In this document: piece by piece, positions 1,185-30,151 of the stretch | Numbering within the stretch: position 1 is the first letter of the stretch | How the letters are laid out: each line of letters starts with the position of its first letter | From: a virus | Taxonomy: Duplodnaviria > Caudoviricetes | DNA: 64,000 nucleotides | Strand: one strand, 5' to 3' | Virus record (IMG/VR): IMGVR_UViG_2901966883_000003 | Position numbers and translations under genes: made by a program | Notes under the pieces: generated by a model | What the model was told of the DNA's origin: nothing | Seen by the model: the letters and a program-made list of their open reading frames with translations, nothing else | Databases searched by the model: none

Positions 1185-1997
1185 CTATTTAAATGCTCGC
1201 ATTGGTGCTAATACACCGATGTAATTATCTAAACCGTTATATGTTACTTGAATTGGTCTGACGTTTTGACTATTCATAAATTCTTTTTCAACAAAAGCTA
1301 ATGTGATTGTTTTGTTACCAACTAAGAATTTATTTACGTGTTTTTCTAATTCATAGATATTGAGATTAATATCATAATCATCAGTAAACCCTTCAGTTAC
1401 ATCACAGTTAATATTTTCTTTTTTGTAGTAGACACTACCTTCTTCATCTTCGTATTCATAACTAAACACGAATTGACCTTTGATAAATTTAATATTTGAT
1501 TGAATTGTTTTGTTATTCCAATTCTTTCTATGGTATCCAGTTTCTTTAATGTGTTTGATAAATTCTTTTAATTCACGAATGTTAAAAGTAATATTTCTAT
1601 CTTCGTTTACCACTGGTAAAATTCTTTCAACACTTGGATAATTACTTTCTGTCATTGAGCTAATAAATTCTTTACCATTCACAATGTAATTGATTTTGTT
1701 ATCAGAAAATTCAAGGATAATTTCTTTATCAACTAATTCTTTATTTTTTAACTTTGCTACTGCTTGAATTGCTTTTCTAGGTACTGCAAACTCAACATCA
1801 TTGTTATTTTCACAATCAAGCGTTAATTTACCTAGTGAATGTGTATCAGTAGCAACTAAAGTTAATTTATTGTTTTCTACTACATGATTAAGTGTTGCTA
1901 ATATAGGTCTGAAACTTGATTTTGAAACATGTACTAAAATTTCTTTGTATCCTTTTACTAATTCTTTTGCATTTACTTTAATTTCTGTTTTTGTCAT
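1185..1997 (-). CDS. DNA polymerase III beta-clamp-like protein (N-terminally truncated)
   Basis: Motifs SFRPILA...LVATDTHSL and NYPSVERILP resemble DnaN domain 2 (RPILTG, VATDSHRL, YPDxxRLIP). Confidence 0.7.
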   Translation of the reverse strand: MTKTEIKVNAKELVKGYKEILVHVSKSSFRPILATLNHVVENNKLTLVATDTHSLGKLTLDCENNNDVEFAVPRKAIQAVAKLKNKELVDKEIILEFSDNKINYIVNGKEFISSMTESNYPSVERILPVVNEDRNITFNIRELKEFIKHIKETGYHRKNWNNKTIQSNIKFIKGQFVFSYEYEDEEGSVYYKKENINCDVTEGFTDDYDINLNIYELEKHVNKFLVGNKTITLAFVEKEFMNSQNVRPIQVTYNGLDNYIGVLAPMRAFK

Positions 1998-2025
1998 GAT
2001 AATTACCACCCTTTAAAATCATTTT

Positions 2026-2223
2026 TTATATTCTATTATTTAATGCTTTGATACCGACTAATAATAAAGTCAAAATTGTGTATGGTATGAATAACATTAG
2101 TTTTAAAAGAAATCTTCTTTTCTTAAATAACCAACAAACAGCATGATAGCTACCCATCAGAATTATTACCAACGCAACAAAACTCATCATGAAAAGCCCT
2201 CCGTAAAATTCCTGATTGTACAT
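2026..2223 (-). CDS. small membrane protein, two hydrophobic segments
   Basis: ORF track; hydrophobic helices separated by KKRR. Confidence 0.65.
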   Translation of the reverse strand: MYNQEFYGGLFMMSFVALVIILMGSYHAVCWLFKKRRFLLKLMLFIPYTILTLLLVGIKALNNRI

Positions 2224-2284
2224 ATTGATTACCACCCTTTTTACTTAATTTATTTTTGTTACTGAAATTCTTATAAATTTTTCT

Positions 2285-2917
2285 TTATTTTGTAACTTCT
2301 ATTGCATTGTATTTTTCAAACATGTATCTATCCAACATGTTTGAATTATCCAATGAAAATTCTTTTACGTTTCCTTCTTCATCTTCGATTGTGTACCATT
2401 CATCAAAAAATTCTTTTTCTAAATTATCTTTATCTACCAACAAATCATTTTCTAAATTTGTTAGTGGATGATATTCAATCAAATCATAAAATCCAGTATC
2501 ATAAATTCTATTTACTGTTACATAAGTGAAAAATCTATTTTTACTATCTAACCATTCCAAAAAATCATATGCGTCTTCGTTAATTGCCTCCATTACGCAA
2601 TCACTATAATAAAAGCTAGTTGCTAACTCTTTATCGAAAGGTTCGCCCATGTCTTTCCACCCACTATCTACCCACTTTTGCATTAATTCTTCTTGAGTTG
2701 GTAGTCTGAAATAATTTCTTTCTTCTTCTAAGTCATCAACTATTTCAAGAAAAGCATCCGTAATATCTTCTAAAGAATCTGTATAATCAGCTAACTCAAT
2801 ATTACTTACTACATGAATACCTTCGCATTCTAACTTGTCTATAAAATTATCAACATGATACAATTCTTCACTTACCAACAATTCTTTTTTATTTACTGTA
2901 TCTATAAACTTTTTCAT
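2285..2917 (-). CDS. acidic hypothetical protein (paralogue of 4463-5155)
   Basis: GGAGGT RBS; shares EGxHxVS and YMxEKYNA motifs with 4463-5155. Confidence 0.8.
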   Translation of the reverse strand: MKKFIDTVNKKELLVSEELYHVDNFIDKLECEGIHVVSNIELADYTDSLEDITDAFLEIVDDLEEERNYFRLPTQEELMQKWVDSGWKDMGEPFDKELATSFYYSDCVMEAINEDAYDFLEWLDSKNRFFTYVTVNRIYDTGFYDLIEYHPLTNLENDLLVDKDNLEKEFFDEWYTIEDEEGNVKEFSLDNSNMLDRYMFEKYNAIEVTK

Positions 2918-2967
2918 AATAGATACCTCCTATATAAAATTATTTTTCTATCCTGATTAGGATATAT

Positions 2968-3024
2968 AAGGTAGTAAGGACTCGAACCTTACAAGTTGTA
3001 AACTTTCTACCGACTAGATACCTT
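2968..3024 (-). ncRNA. tRNA-like structured element 1
   Basis: Minus strand AAGGTA...GTAAGG-TTCGAGT-CCTTAC-TACCTT: acceptor-like stem, T-arm with T-loop and two mini arms. Confidence 0.5.
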
Positions 3025-3055
3025 TTTTTATTTCTTCTCTAGACTCTTGACTGTT

Positions 3056-3700
3056 TTAAAATACGTGTTTTTGAAATTGTTTTACCGCCTCATCCTTCTT
3101 ACCTTGAGTCCACAACTCAGTTATTAAGTAATCCCTTTTCACAATGCTAAAGAAATTAACGTCATAATAATCAGCATCACTCATATCAATATTTTTTTCT
3201 TTCATATACTCATAAATTTCATTTGACCATCTAACTCTTGAAATATCCACAGCATAACTAGCTACCATACCAGGATAAACTTCATCATTCATAAGTTGAC
3301 CTAGTTTTTGTAATTCATGTGTCAAAGCCAATTCAAAACTTGACACTTCTTTACCTTTTTGTTTTTGTTCATACATCCACACCGTTTCTTTAAAATCTTT
3401 TTCATCAAGCTTCATGTTTTCTAAAATTCTTGTGTCATTCAAGTCTAGATTTTCAAACTCTTCTTCGGCATCGAAATCTTCTAGTGTTTCAATAAGTTGC
3501 TTTTCTAAACTTGCAAAAATTTCTTTTTCTGACTTACCTTCTAATTCATCTATATCGTTGTAAGTGTAGTAAATTCTACTGTCGTATTGACCTACAATAG
3601 TAGCCTCTAGGTCATTGGTATATATATTTATATCTTCGATATATAAACCCCACGCATTAACCACGTCATCCATAATTCCAAAAATTTCTTCGTTTGTCAT
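3056..3700 (-). CDS. acidic hypothetical protein
   Basis: ORF track; GAGGT RBS. Confidence 0.8.
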   Translation of the reverse strand: MTNEEIFGIMDDVVNAWGLYIEDINIYTNDLEATIVGQYDSRIYYTYNDIDELEGKSEKEIFASLEKQLIETLEDFDAEEEFENLDLNDTRILENMKLDEKDFKETVWMYEQKQKGKEVSSFELALTHELQKLGQLMNDEVYPGMVASYAVDISRVRWSNEIYEYMKEKNIDMSDADYYDVNFFSIVKRDYLITELWTQGKKDEAVKQFQKHVF

Positions 3701-3772
3701 AATAAATTACCTCTATTCTTAAATTATTTTTTGTTATCAAGTTATTCTCTATACCCTTAACTTGATAACTGA

Positions 3773-3801
3773 ATTATAACTTCTTAATTCTTACTTGTCA
3801 A
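3773..3801 (-). promoter_or_regulatory. consensus sigma-A promoter
   Basis: TTGACA-17-TATAAT on minus strand. Confidence 0.75.
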
Positions 3802-3816
3802 CACTAAAATTTATTT

Positions 3817-4197
3817 TTATTTTATTATTGTAGTAGTACCTTTAAAATCACTTGGTACACTTTCAATTTCAATACCCTTAGCACCCACACCTTGCTCACT
3901 AACCACTCTTAAATTCTTGTCGTTAGGATAGACAACCATATGAAAATCTTTTTTATTGTCATCATAGTATTCTAACGTGAACTTTTTAGTTTTGAGTATG
4001 TTACCACTTTGCAAGTCTAAATTCTTGACGTTATAAGTCAATTCTTGACGTTGCTTTTTGATAACTTTTTCTTGACGTAAATTTTCTTTTTTGAGTTGCT
4101 TATTTTGTTTAATGTATTCATGATTAGATACACCTAAGCACACCACACCTATTATTGTTATTACATTAGTTATTTTTAAAATATTTATTTTATTCAT
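3817..4197 (-). CDS. membrane-anchored or secreted hypothetical protein
   Basis: N-terminal hydrophobic segment followed by coiled coil. Confidence 0.7.
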   Translation of the reverse strand: MNKINILKITNVITIIGVVCLGVSNHEYIKQNKQLKKENLRQEKVIKKQRQELTYNVKNLDLQSGNILKTKKFTLEYYDDNKKDFHMVVYPNDKNLRVVSEQGVGAKGIEIESVPSDFKGTTTIIK

Positions 4198-4227
4198 TTT
4201 AATTACCTCACTAAAATTATTTTTTTG

Positions 4228-4437
4228 TTATGCAAATATTTCTTCTTTGAATTTCTCAAAATATGTTTCTAGTATCGTATCTACATCTTCGGATTCTTGA
4301 TAATCCATAAAGGTTAGAATATCTTCTACACCTTTACTGTAGATATATAAATTCTTTTTCACACCATTAACAATAAATTCAACTTCTATATCATCTAAGT
4401 TGTAAGCAAATCCTACATATTCAATATTATTTTTCAT
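4228..4437 (-). CDS. hypothetical early protein
   Basis: ORF track; GGAG RBS. Confidence 0.7.
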   Translation of the reverse strand: MKNNIEYVGFAYNLDDIEVEFIVNGVKKNLYIYSKGVEDILTFMDYQESEDVDTILETYFEKFKEEIFA

Positions 4438-20284: not shown

Positions 20285-21062
20285 AGAAGGTATATGCGTA
20301 TTCTGCCACAATAAAAAGAGTTTGATTGATAGCAACAATACTCTTTTATCTGAAAATGGTTTCGGAGTTTGTCGAAGTTGTTCAAATCGAAATGTTGAAC
20401 TAGAAAACAAACAATCATTTATTGATATGTGTCTTCTACTCAACATGCCTTTCTTGATTGACAAATACGAAAATACGGTAGAAAGCGGAAAGAAAAATGT
20501 AGCATGGTCTACTTACAAATCACGCATTAGCAAGGTTTGGACGGATGGCTTTGCTAGTTCCATTTTTGAATACGAAGACCAAGATAAACAAGAAGGATTC
20601 GTAATAACTGATGAAATGAAAGCTCGTTGGGGTACGGGCTATGAAACTAGCGAAATTGAAGTTTTGGAATTGTCACTACGAAACCTTTATGCAATTAAAG
20701 AACCAGCAACCAAGTTTGAGGTTGAAAAATACATCTCCAATGTCAAGTTAAAGATTGCTTTAGATAGAGCGTTTGAAGAAAATGATGTGAAGGCTATCCC
20801 AGCGTTACGTAAAGCGTACGAAGATGATTGTAAGACATTGGGACTAGAGGCAGTATTAAATACCAAAGAAGATAAGATTGAAAGCGTGGGCGAAAGCATT
20901 AGACACTGGGAAGCAACAAAGCCTGTTCCTACTCGTAAAGAGTATGAAGACGTAGATGGATATGCCGAATACTTAACTAAGTGGTATATCACCCCACTCA
21001 AACGCAACTTCGGTATGGCAAGCGAAGAAGAGGTGAATGAATTGTATGCAGGGACAGAGTAG
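20265..21062 (+). CDS. zinc-finger protein upstream of terminase (possible small subunit, SPbeta YonG-like position)
   Basis: CVFC...CRSC; overlaps the start of terL. Confidence 0.55.
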   Translation: MIAMANREGICVFCHNKKSLIDSNNTLLSENGFGVCRSCSNRNVELENKQSFIDMCLLLNMPFLIDKYENTVESGKKNVAWSTYKSRISKVWTDGFASSIFEYEDQDKQEGFVITDEMKARWGTGYETSEIEVLELSLRNLYAIKEPATKFEVEKYISNVKLKIALDRAFEENDVKAIPALRKAYEDDCKTLGLEAVLNTKEDKIESVGESIRHWEATKPVPTRKEYEDVDGYAEYLTKWYITPLKRNFGMASEEEVNELYAGTE

Positions 21063-23331
21063 TTATCTCCAAAAGAAAGCCGAAAATTTCGCTGAATGGA
21101 TAGGTTTTTACAGACAAAACCCACATCGTTTCATGGAAGACTATTTTGGTACTCATCTGCATCCATTTCAACGTTTCTTATTCTATATGATGAATAAGGA
21201 CGATAAATTTATGTATATCGCAGCACGTGGTCGATTTGGTCGTCTAGTCAAGTAATTGGTTAGATTATTAGTGCGAAATTAAGCTGGAAACCTAAGTCGA
21301 AAGATATGGTAATCAGAACCGAAGGCTAGTTTTAAAAGACTAGACAGGGGCAGAGCATAGCAACTGAAACTCACTGAGAATATAATGTTGCCACGAGGTC
21401 GCACCACCCTAGCAAGTCAAGTTGTGGGTGAAAAGATATGCCATTCCTAGTCGAAAGATTAGGGCTGAGAGATAAAAAACTCTCAAGCTCATATGAGTAA
21501 ATAGCAAGGTGAATTGATTTGCCTAGTTTAGTAGAAATATTAAACCGTAATCGCAATAGAAAACTGGAAGCCTAAGTCATTTGATAAGGTAATCAGAGTG
21601 GAAGGTTAAAGGTAATATGTTAACCACACGCAGAGCATAGTGGCTGAAACTTGTAAAAGAATATAATGCCACCAAGAGATTGCGACATCTAAACAAGTTA
21701 AGTTGTAGATGAAAAGATATGCCGAACTTATAGGAAACTATAAGAAATAAGAGATAAAAAGCTCTTATGGTAACAAACTGAAATCGTTCTTGATTGCGTG
21801 GTATTGCATTGTTCGCTGTGTTTTATATCCAGGAACGAACATTGCACTTGCCGCTGGTACAAAAGGACAGGCTGCAAAAATAATATCTGAAAAGATTGAC
21901 AAATTCTATGATGAAAATGCAGCGTTGCGATTTGAAATAGGGAATAGACGAGATAATATCAAAACAAGTTATAACGAAGCATACGTTAAGTTTAAAAACG
22001 GTTCTAAGATACAAGCTGTAACTTCTAACGATAATTCACGTGGTATTCGTGCCAATATCTTAATTGTTGATGAGTTCCGTATGGTTAACAAAACAGTATT
22101 AGACAAGGTTTTAAAGCCATTCTTGAACGTAGTTAGACAACCAAGATATTTAACTTTGCCAGAATACAAAGATTATCCAAAAGAAGAAAACAAGCAGATT
22201 TATATTTCATCTGCATGGTGGAAATCACATTGGTCTTGGGACGAATTTCAAGCATATTTAAAGAAAATGCTTAAAGGCGACAAATATTTCGTAGCAGATT
22301 TGCCATATCAGTTATCAATACATCATGGTTTGTTAACAAAACAGATTGTTAATGATGAAAGAACCAGTGATAGTTTCGACCAAAATGGTTTTGATATGGA
22401 ATATGAGGCTATATTTGTTGGTGAAAATGACAAGGCTTACTTCAAATTAGACAAGTTAAATAAGATTAGAACATTAAATAAGGCTTTTATTCCACCTACA
22501 AGTCGAGAATATTTAGAGAATAAGAACTTATCACAACCTAAAAAGTTGTCAAATATGCCTAAACGTAGGGATATTGATGAAATAAGAATTATCTCACTAG
22601 ATATTGCTCTTATGGGTGGTAATAAAAACGTTAAAAATGATACTTCCGCATTTACATGTTTCAGATTAATAAGAGATGGTGATAGCTATCGTAGAGAGGT
22701 TGTTTACCTTGAAAGTATTAACGATAGTATCTCCAGTCAGAATTTAGCTATTAGATTGAAACAACTATATAACGACTTCCAAGCCGATTATGTAGTAATG
22801 GACGCAAACGGAAATGGTTTAGGTGTTTTTGACGCATGTGCAACAGTTCTACACGACCAAGAACGTGATGAAGATTATCCAGCTTGGGCAAGTATGAACG
22901 ATGAAGCAACTAATGAACGTACAAAAACACATGGTTTACCTATTGTATATACGGTTAAGGCTTCCGCAGCATTTAACAATGAAATTGCTCAATCACTAAA
23001 TTCAGCTATTGAAAGTGGGAAATTGAGATTACCAATTAACCACATTGAAAAGCGTGAAGATTTAGTTAACTCTGGTGGTTTCTTAAAGAAGTCAGTAGAG
23101 GAGCAACAAAAAGAATTGTATTCATTTAACCAAGCAACAGCTCTAGTTAATGAGTTGGTTAACCTAGAATACGAGGTGCGTGAAGGTAAAATCCGTATCA
23201 AAGAAGTAGGTACAACAACAAAAGATAGATATAGTTCTATCGCATACGGTAACTTCTATGCTAATGAGTTGGAAAAAGATTTGAGAGCAGAAGAAGCTAG
23301 TCGTAATTTATTGGATTTTATATTTGTATAA
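21037..23331 (+). CDS. terL: terminase large subunit; three exons 21037-21231, 21505-21510, 21781-23331 (583 aa spliced)
   Basis: Splicing restores Walker A IAARG-QG-KSFLIAW; Walker B LIVDEF; nuclease-domain acidic motifs SLDIA, MDANG, KDRYS; start may be ATG 21046. Confidence 0.92.
21232..21504 (+). ncRNA. group I intron 1 (273 nt, no ORF)
   Basis: Exon ends in U, intron ends in G; P3 GTGCGA/TCGCAC; P7 GAGCATA/TATGCC; Q-like GGTAATCAG. Confidence 0.88.
21511..21780 (+). ncRNA. group I intron 2 (270 nt, no ORF)
   Basis: U|...G boundaries; IGS GATTT-GCCT pairs the 3' exon AAATC and the 5' exon AGGT; P3 TCGCAAT/ATTGCGA; P7 GAGCATA/TATGCC. Confidence 0.9.
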
Positions 23332-28596: not shown

Positions 28597-30151
28597 AAGT
28601 GTTGAACCATTAATAAAAATTATAATAAATTAAATAAAAGTCTATCAGAAAGCGTAAAAATATAGGTAGTCTTTAAGACAATAAATCCAAAACCATAAAA
28701 CGTCTTCATTTTAATATGAATATATATTGGCTTACTTCTATAAAATTAGTATAATATAGAAGATAAAATTATTATACCAATTTAGTGAAATAAAGTGAGG
28801 TGGCATATATGATTAGAACGCAAAAAGTAAGACTTTATCCAAATCAAACCATGAAGAAAGTTCTTGATGATTTATGTGATTATCGTAGATATTGTTGGAA
28901 TCAAGGGTTGGCTTTATGGAATGATATGTATGATAGTTCCTTAATTTTAGATGATAAAAAGCTGAGACCTAATGAGTACAAGGTGAGGAAAGAGTTGGTA
29001 GCTAATAAAGAAGATTGGCAATATCAATTATCTTCCAGATGTTTGCAGTTAGCGAGTGTAGACTTGGGCAAAGCGTGGGATAACTTTTTTAATAAGGCAT
29101 TACCAGATTGGGGCAAACCTAAATATAAGTCTAAAAAAGCTCCTAGACAAGGTTTTAAAACTGATAGAGCCAAGATTGTCAACGGGAAACTAAGACTTGA
29201 CAAACCACACAGAATCAAAACTTGGTATGATATTAAGTTTAAAGGTGCTAAGAGCTTAGATGGTGATTTAAAAGTTGTATCAATCTATCGTGAAAATGGT
29301 AAATACTGGGCTAGTTTACCTTTTGAAGTTGAAATAGCTAAGAAAGATAAAACTTGTAAGAAAACAGCAGTTGATGTTAATGTAGGTCATTTCAACTATA
29401 CCGAAGGTAAAGTTAATACATTGCCTAATCATCTAAAGAAACTCTATAAACGTATCAAACATTACCAACGTCAGTTGGCTAGAAAACGTGTTGTTAATGG
29501 AAAGAAAGCTACTCAATCGCATAATTATGTTAAAACGAGAGCCAAGTTACAACGTGATTATCGTAAAGTGGCTAATATCCAACATGATATTATTCATAAA
29601 TTTACAACTAAATTAGTAAGTGATTACGACAAAATCGTAATCGAAGATTTAGATGTGAAGAAAATGCAGATGACACACGTTGCTTCTAAAGGTTTACACC
29701 GTTCACAATTTGGTTATTTTAGGCAAATGTTGACCTATAAAGCTGATTGGTATGGTAAGGAAATAGTCTTAGCAGACCAATATTATCCAAGCACACAAAG
29801 ATGTTCTGAATGTGGATATATCAAGACTGGCGAAGATAAAGTTGGTCTTAATGGTAATCGTAAGCATGGAACAAAACATAACGAATATATTTGTTATGAA
29901 TGTGGTTCGATTATGGATAGAGATGAAAATGCAGTTATGAATTTATTAAATTTAGTAGCATAAAAATACAACGGGGTGGGCTACACCCTTATGCTATCAG
30001 AGCTAGTCAATGTCATTACCCTTTAGTTAGGATATGGGAATACTAGCGTTGACGGTAGTAAATAAAATCTAGGAAAGGAAAAACTATATTTCTTTCTAAT
30101 AATATAGAACTAATAACTATTGGTCTATATTATTCTACATTTTATATAGCG
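28597..30151 (+). mobile_element. tnpA-less TnpB element including probable omegaRNA region (29964-30151); ends inferred
   Basis: Non-coding 190 nt after tnpB; joining the flanks recreates an AAAGGAGGTG RBS for the next gene. Confidence 0.5.
28800..29963 (+). CDS. tnpB: TnpB RNA-guided endonuclease (IS200/IS605/IS607 family)
   Basis: N-terminal HTH, RuvC triad AVDVN/IEDL/DRDENA, zinc ribbon CSECG...CYECG. Confidence 0.93.
   Translation: MAYMIRTQKVRLYPNQTMKKVLDDLCDYRRYCWNQGLALWNDMYDSSLILDDKKLRPNEYKVRKELVANKEDWQYQLSSRCLQLASVDLGKAWDNFFNKALPDWGKPKYKSKKAPRQGFKTDRAKIVNGKLRLDKPHRIKTWYDIKFKGAKSLDGDLKVVSIYRENGKYWASLPFEVEIAKKDKTCKKTAVDVNVGHFNYTEGKVNTLPNHLKKLYKRIKHYQRQLARKRVVNGKKATQSHNYVKTRAKLQRDYRKVANIQHDIIHKFTTKLVSDYDKIVIEDLDVKKMQMTHVASKGLHRSQFGYFRQMLTYKADWYGKEIVLADQYYPSTQRCSECGYIKTGEDKVGLNGNRKHGTKHNEYICYECGSIMDRDENAVMNLLNLVA

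Follow-up and report, generated by a model that had tools for sequence, protein, structure and literature searches.

How can a phage make the large terminase subunit of its packaging motor when the gene for it appears broken in the middle of the ATP-binding motif? This question is raised by the terL gene in virus record IMGVR_UViG_2901966883_000003, of which we analyzed a stretch of 64,000 nucleotides (nt), called the window below. An initial annotation had proposed that the Walker A motif, or P-loop, of this gene is interrupted by two group I introns that lack open reading frames (ORFs) and flank an exon of only 6 nt. We find that this is very probably so, and that two related introns of one family, independently acquired, lie after successive GGU codons of the motif, each a complete ribozyme and each selfish. 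The gene is laid out as follows.

21037 to 21231, plus strand: terL exon 1, 65 codons, M...FMYIAARG by translation.
21232 to 21504, plus strand: group I intron 1, 273 nt, ORF-less, with a P7.1/P7.2 insert; follows the Gly codon GGU of Arg-Gly and ends in G.
21505 to 21510, plus strand: micro-exon CAAGGT, encoding Gln-Gly of the Walker A motif.
21511 to 21780, plus strand: group I intron 2, 270 nt, ORF-less; follows the Gly codon GGU of Gln-Gly and ends in G.
21781 to 23331, plus strand: terL exon 3, 516 codons and a stop, KSFLIAWYC..., open from AAA TCG TTC.

The upstream piece, an ORF starting at 21037, runs out of frame past the GGT at 21231. Its product is 61% identical to residues 1-62 of a full-length homologue, P0004, and the alignment stops exactly at RG. 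The exon 3 product has 3084 homologues, those with names being phage or prophage terminase large subunits, and shares 43% identity with YonF of Bacillus phage SPbeta. Taken alone, exon 3 matches the Terminase_6N and TerL_ATPase models weakly, under their cut-offs, because the P-loop is missing from that piece; P0004 passes both (36.3 and 30.7 bits, respectively). Full-length TerL homologues are 565-590 amino acids long, and every one of the 96 that could be read carries [A/S/T]RG-x-GKS (ARGQGKS in 67 of the 96). The initial annotation had staked its reading on homologues having two residues between RG and KS, and all 96 do. Removing both elements and keeping CAAGGT gives AARG-QG-KSF, the Walker A motif being complete only after both splices. 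With an N-terminal ATPase region carrying Walker A and similarity to the TerL family, the window gene is a terminase large subunit of the SPbeta YonF type.

The strongest evidence that the intervening sequences are inserts comes from elements that lack them. The closest virus record, G001 (127 kilobases, with terminal repeats), is identical to the window at 97% of exon 1 and 96% of exon 3 DNA positions, has no intron and carries exactly 13 nt where the window carries 556. It reads GCA GCA CGT GGA CAA GGA AAG AGC TTT, or AARGQGKSF, the protein predicted for the spliced window gene. Two further loci, L003 and L004, have no intron either, L003 being identical to G001 at the intron site. Plasmid pMP1046B (L005) has intron 1 only, in a 277-nt copy 94% identical to that of the window, followed by CAAGGT AAG AGC. 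Both introns recur in 14 contigs carrying the terL homologue P0003; in two examples, L086 and L087, the same CAAGGT, both guides and both cores are present, the introns are 95-98% identical to those of the window (95% for intron 1 and 98% for intron 2 in L086) and exon 3 DNA has diverged by ~4%. The comparison of the 13-nt and 556-nt alleles, together with the coordinates and with the model matches and covariation given below, bears out the proposed arrangement. The intron-less allele has GGA at both sites and the intron-bearing alleles have GGT; thus, the U required in front of a group I 5' splice site occurs only where an intron sits or, as in L005, could sit.

Across elements with zero, one and two introns, the exon-3 protein is 99-100% identical. 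Because sister elements encoding practically this protein carry no intron or one, we regard the introns as dispensable selfish inserts and not as a required control device. The gene itself has been maintained: judged from its codons, terL of the twin-intron lineages is under purifying selection, as exon 3 of the two lineages differs at 54 synonymous versus 7 non-synonymous codons. Relative to the intron-1-only allele, exon 3 of the window differs at +3, +4, +5, +6 and +9 (AAA TCG TTC vs AAG AGC TTT) and next at +102. These changes switch the serine codon family and lengthen the P10 helix of intron 2 from 3 to 6 base pairs (bp), and the tract looks like a short stretch brought in with intron 2.

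We then asked what kind of elements these are. In a permissive local search of 801 nt, from which the E-values derive, both matched the full Rfam model RF00028 (28.7 bits, E 3e-5 for intron 1; 22.7 bits, E 2e-3 for intron 2). RNAalifold, applied to 15 members of the intron family, recovered P3, P4, P5, P6, P6a, P7.1, P8, P9 and P9.1. To these helices we added P7 as a pseudoknot (P3/P7), P5a and P7.2 to obtain a full P3-P9.1 model for the same members, in which 97.2% of 836 cells are standard pairs, compared with 29-38% when partners are slid by 1-3 columns. Double-sided changes occur at 38 of the 58 pairs, and none of 500 shuffles reached the observed covariation score. The compensatory changes first noticed in P3 are present and extend to P6, P7.1, P8, P9 and P9.1. 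P7 (G, bulged A, GCAUA:UAUGC-C) is invariant in the 15 members save for its outer pair, which goes from G-C to A-U in L046 and L047; all five pairs of P7.1 covary, and P7.2, found in 12 members, has been deleted from the other three. Helices P7.1 and P7.2 between P7 and the 3' strand of P3 are a hallmark of subgroup IA, to which we assign both window introns on this predicted structure.

The two introns are 63% identical when aligned over their whole length and fold with minimum free energy z-scores of -2.6 (intron 1) and -3.4 (intron 2). Each is preceded by U at its 5' splice site and ends in G (21504, 21780), as group I boundaries should. Neither contains a sense ORF of at least 30 amino acids, and neither thus has the encoded endonuclease by which a mobile intron is recognized. 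In both, the guides for P10 and P1 are contiguous, near the 5' end and at homologous positions; the P7 strands, guide pairings and U|...G boundaries are as first described.

21235 to 21243, plus strand: intron 1 guide; UUUG (21235-21238) pairs with CAAG of the micro-exon as P10, GUCGU (21239-21243) with GUGGU of exon 1 as P1.
21353 to 21359, plus strand: 5' strand of intron 1 P7, GAGCAUA, with partner UAUGCC at 21437-21442; the A is bulged.
21515 to 21524, plus strand: intron 2 guide; UGAUUU (21515-21520) pairs with AAAUCG of exon 3 as P10, GCCU (21521-21524) with AGGU of the micro-exon as P1.
21633 to 21639, plus strand: 5' strand of intron 2 P7, GAGCAUA, with partner UAUGCC at 21708-21713.

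In 20,000 trials with shuffled intron heads, the observed P1 plus P10 total was reached in 4% of trials for intron 1 and 0.5% for intron 2. A nested twintron was considered and rejected: the introns are adjacent, neither inside the other, both have a complete core and guides of their own, and intron 1 stands alone in L005.

Every base of the micro-exon is used by the guide of one or both introns, C1-G4 in P10 of intron 1 and A3-U6 in P1 of intron 2, with A3 and G4 in both. Splicing of intron 1 would be directed by GUCGU on exon 1 and UUUG on the micro-exon, and that of intron 2 by GCCU on the micro-exon and UGAUUU on exon 3; an active TerL would require both introns out and CAAGGU retained, giving AARGQGKS. 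The guide helices would compete for micro-exon bases 3-4, and because P10 of intron 1 and P1 of intron 2 cannot coexist, the two splicing events would be sequential. That the six bases serve both helices had been proposed at the outset and holds; the obligatory order proposed with it does not, as either order fits the pairings and keeps both guides usable. Self-splicing chemistry is predicted for both introns.

The same layout offers a second outcome. Because both 5' splice sites read GGU|, the guide of intron 2 also pairs with the end of exon 1 (GGU:GCC, 3 bp) while retaining its 6-bp P10; the guide of intron 1 has no P10 with exon 3. A side reaction between the outermost splice sites, 5' of intron 1 and 3' of intron 2, would release a 549-nt RNA made of intron 1, the micro-exon and intron 2. 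It would leave either unligated exons, by the full-length-circle pathway, or an mRNA without Gln-Gly, which would be in frame, as the initial annotation had pointed out. By the circle route, the terminal G of intron 2 would attack the 5' site of intron 1, and the same geometry would permit exon skipping. Full-length group I circles are known to form by hydrolysis at the 3' site, after which the terminal G attacks the 5' site (PMC4238349). Core 2 is the likelier catalyst of the 549-nt RNA, given that its guide pairs with the end of exon 1 and keeps P10, and that the intron 1 guide lacks P10 with exon 3.

An RNA of this kind is present in public data. The stretch occurs in 20 public runs from 11 studies, mainly of chicken and pig gut, six of them RNA libraries; we mapped three RNA runs and one DNA-like run onto it. 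The DNA-like run, X3, has the ordinary exon-intron junctions, in contigs covering 20899-21320 and 21300-22103. A metatranscriptome from the same study, X15, yielded a 555-nt contig at depth 9.4 that runs, with 0-1 mismatches, through 21466-21780 and then directly into 21232-21471, nothing lying between; the flanking exons are almost uncovered. Introns 1 and 2 have no 31-mer in common, and the joint of 21780 to 21232 must therefore come from reads. The X15 RNA is a 549-nt circle or a head-to-tail form of intron 1, micro-exon and intron 2, and its ends fall exactly at the predicted splice sites, which is indirect evidence for GTP-dependent self-splicing. Processing at the level of the whole cassette therefore occurs, and exon skipping or circle formation is a real side reaction. 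The observation is new, and it shows neither regulation nor the productive junction. From a second study, X17 gave only a 284-nt RNA contig, which spans the micro-exon. Another run, X16, has a divergent contig over 21470-21777, gapped at 15 bases close to the micro-exon, that may represent an intron-2-only variant.

Five points weigh against the arrangement of two working selfish introns. First, the RF00028 scores of both fall under the curated gathering cut-off of 50 bits, and Rfam at that threshold detects no intron in the whole window. The model search suggested in the initial annotation thus returned its full-length matches at scores short of a curated hit, the cut-off being a criterion of detection and not a structural requirement. 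Second, P1 comprises only 5 bp in intron 1, three of them wobbles, and 4 bp in intron 2, and the chance test for the intron 1 guide stands at only 4%. Third, the joint from 21780 to 21232 is one assembled contig from one run, and the library may hold some DNA. Fourth, the productive junction GGT-CAAGGT-AAA was not found in the mapped RNA runs, in which the exons of this allele are nearly uncovered. Fifth, because the element can also maintain itself as a plasmid, a non-functional terL could last for some time. We nevertheless conclude that the pair of group I introns is real, on its anatomy, homology, covariation and allele series, the exact ends of its RNA and the purifying selection on its host gene. 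Productive double splicing with exon retention we infer from selection and not from a transcript seen, because of the excess of synonymous changes noted above and because CAAGGT, the guides and the cores are kept in both lineages.

If the two ribozymes act in concert often enough, the twin cassette might be a natural generator of a stable 549-nt circular RNA and of TerL that is P-loop-less or not made at all, the share of transcripts keeping the exon setting the amount of active motor. We think this improbable; if true, it would be a ribozyme-level brake coupling lytic packaging to cellular conditions. Slightly less probable still is the switch suggested in the initial annotation, by which keeping or skipping the 6-nt exon would time or throttle packaging, either because TerL without Gln-Gly poisons the motor or because guanosine triphosphate (GTP) or folding conditions gate active TerL. 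Skipping would be in frame, the cassette RNA with exact ends exists and the end of exon 1 is open to pairing with the intron 2 guide; moreover, phage introns have been discussed as a molecular on-switch, and SIOphi shows exon skipping (PMC11878797). However, the arrangement is not needed by sister elements with the same exon-3 protein and no or one intron, a comparison that leaves the switch unsupported, and the intron family behaves as mobile DNA, with LAGLIDADG-bearing relatives, several insertion sites and a converted exon flank. The guides have also diverged (GUCGU vs GCCU), a difference that favors exon inclusion in engineered tandem introns (PMC10136302). Finally, no skipped junction was found in the mapped RNA runs, whose exon coverage is too thin to judge either mRNA, and neither spliced, skipped nor circle junctions were found in Joint Genome Institute (JGI) metagenome contigs, a collection mostly of DNA with little chicken or pig gut.

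It is very unlikely that the twin allele is simply dead, yielding no functional terL mRNA because a 6-nt exon is unmanageable, with the element surviving only as a plasmid. The productive junction was not seen, the sole processed RNA seen keeps the micro-exon within the excised piece, and the element has plasmid functions, as in pMP1046B. Yet two twin lineages ~4% apart in exon 3 DNA keep CAAGGT, guides and cores, with the 54-to-7 ratio of codon changes in terL, and the arrangement is present in runs from all 11 studies. Least credible is a single composite intron of 549 nt spliced only as a unit, with CAAGGU a pseudo-exon, as the head-to-tail RNA and the fungal cox3-640 precedent of tandem modules spliced as a unit (PMC12308204) might suggest: its product would be AARG-KS, although two residues stand there in 96 of 96 homologues and as CAAGGA in the intron-less allele, and although both introns carry guides of their own that fit the micro-exon and intron 1 occurs alone in L005.

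With two selfish introns as the preferred reading, we asked where they came from. The same intron family also occupies the terL genes of related elements, which come from Limosilactobacillus reuteri, L. ingluviei and metagenomes, at several points: site 1 after GGU of Arg-Gly, site 1b one base on, site 2 after GGU of Gln-Gly, and site 3 after GGU of Ser-Gly, 84 nt downstream. In relatives the guide varies with the insertion site (CCUU+GCCCC for introns one base on, after the C of the Gln codon), which supports the splice-site assignments. LAGLIDADG endonuclease ORFs are present in relatives at sites 1, 2 and 3; the window introns have none. Paired introns also occur elsewhere, one behind Arg-Gly and one behind Ser-Gly with 84 nt between them, in L018 (2395-2653, 2738-3000) and L021 (1519-1793, ~1878-3000). 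The occupied sites all come after a GGU glycine codon, a pattern suggesting that the family has spread to look-alike targets within one gene.

A tree of the family places intron 1, together with its counterparts in L005 and L086, far from intron 2 and its counterpart in L086, in two well supported clades. The nearest neighbors of intron 2 are site-1 introns from elements of the L. reuteri type, so the pair did not arise by local duplication. Recent tandem duplication of a single intron was considered as well and rejected, given the 63% identity of the two and their separate clades.

Some relatives seem to break the boundary rules. If their mRNA encodes RGQGKS, the last intron base would be A in L008:2745-2994, L025:2745-2994, L015:352-1452 and L019:2723-2995, and U in L021:1519-1793; in these five loci (L008, L025, L015, L019 and L021), no shift of splice sites gives U or C at -1, a 3' G and RG-x-GKS together. 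The site-1b introns (L007, L019, L021) are preceded by C, not U, and their P1 and P10 guides fit the junctions well. These copies may be decaying or may use an unusual 3' site. In more distant terL genes, L088:122-1518 and L091:1203-1518 hold a single site-2 intron (Gln-Gly|Lys-Ser) whose core is of another type and in which a LAGLIDADG ORF may be present or absent. Its P1-P2 region and 3' tail resemble those of intron 2 of the window, a likeness that hints at mosaic introns. Two extra contigs of run X3 match only 21272-21326 of intron 1 and then run into unlike sequence, and further copies of the family therefore exist in other contexts in that sample.

The carrier is an SPbeta-like, pMP1046B-like phage-plasmid of gut lactobacilli, its host probably Ligilactobacillus salivarius. 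The closest annotated record is L. salivarius JCM1046 plasmid pMP1046B (NZ_CP007648.1), 97.8% identical over the region, which was published as a "chromid" and is an SPbeta-like phage-plasmid; the paper describing it makes no mention of introns or a terminase. The initial annotation had foreseen that gene callers would truncate terL, and they truncate or drop it: P0003 was called as 521 amino acids with its start inside intron 2, and in pMP1046B (L107, locus 2282-4300), where intron 1 is present, the annotation calls exon 1 a hypothetical protein and gives the body of terL no coding sequence. In related contigs the upstream neighbor of terL is YonG-like. A megablast of the region against the phage collection gave no match, and the twin micro-exon junction was not found in IMG/VR, which, like the JGI contigs, is mostly DNA with little material from chicken or pig gut, so that neither negative argues for absence. 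One further RNA element was detected in the window.

29994 to 30052, plus strand: match to Rfam RF03014, "Transposase-1 RNA", 71 bits (cut-off 42.8).

The SPbeta phage group is known to harbor group I introns and an intein, and Lazarevic and colleagues reportedly described, in 1998, group I introns in bnrdE and bnrdF of SPbeta. The window belongs to the same phage group, its terL being a YonF homologue, and the host genes differ, those of SPbeta encoding ribonucleotide reductase.

Closer parallels exist elsewhere. In orf142 of Staphylococcus phage Twort, according to a later summary, two highly similar IA-type introns surround a 23-nt exon, and ribozyme exon skipping was observed (Landthaler & Shub 1999, via PMC10136302). 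There, too, several group I introns occupy one phage structural gene and a similar IA pair flanks a short exon; however, the exon is 23 nt instead of 6, the gene, site and phage group are different, and splicing in the window is predicted. Terminase genes are split by several group I introns in Bastillevirinae as well: terL and pol genes of SIOphi and phiAGATE contain 2-3, and joining of the first 5' site to the second 3' site has been seen (PMC11878797). Those are Herelleviridae of Bacillus with introns averaging ~800 nt, often with endonuclease genes, whereas the window is an SPbeta-like Lactobacillaceae phage-plasmid with ORF-less introns of 270 nt; no 6-nt exon or P-loop site is reported there (PMC11878797). 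Two group I introns also surround a 34-nt exon in Coxiella burnetii 23S ribosomal RNA (rRNA), with skipping, as cited secondhand (PMC10136302, on Hicks et al. 2011), and tandem Tetrahymena introns engineered around a 24-nt exon gave skipped and included products, partly through use of the distal 5' site by the second intron (PMC10136302). Both resemble the window in the short exon between two group I introns, and a second intron can use a distal 5' site; they differ in that one is an rRNA gene, the other is an artificial reporter and the exons are longer, and in the window the alternative P1 would arise because both sites are glycine codons reading GGU. In fungal mitochondria, tandem group I modules have very short spacers (cox3-640; cob-201 with an 18-nt "pseudoexon"; PMC12308204), but they are organellar and protein-assisted, and in the window function depends on keeping the 6 nt in between.

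In the literature we found no phage or bacterial group I introns reported to flank an exon of 6 nt, and no report of introns in this element. The twin introns are an extreme case of a known phenomenon, as several group I introns in terL and exon skipping have already been published. To form its guide helices, a group I intron needs a few bases of the exon on either side, and 6 nt is close to the shortest exon that two ribozymes could share with both still able to work, far below the published natural cases we found, the 23 nt of Twort and the 34 nt of Coxiella. The head-to-tail composite RNA makes the question of skipping testable, while a switch on packaging is speculation. For the elements themselves, the introns explain why terL is missing or truncated in annotated Lactobacillaceae "megaplasmids", which are SPbeta-like phage-plasmids. 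The locus captures an intron family spreading between neighboring GGU codons of one essential motif, and it comes with natural controls: near-identical elements with none, one or both introns provide a system for studying how tandem ribozymes avoid or exploit skipping and circles in vivo.

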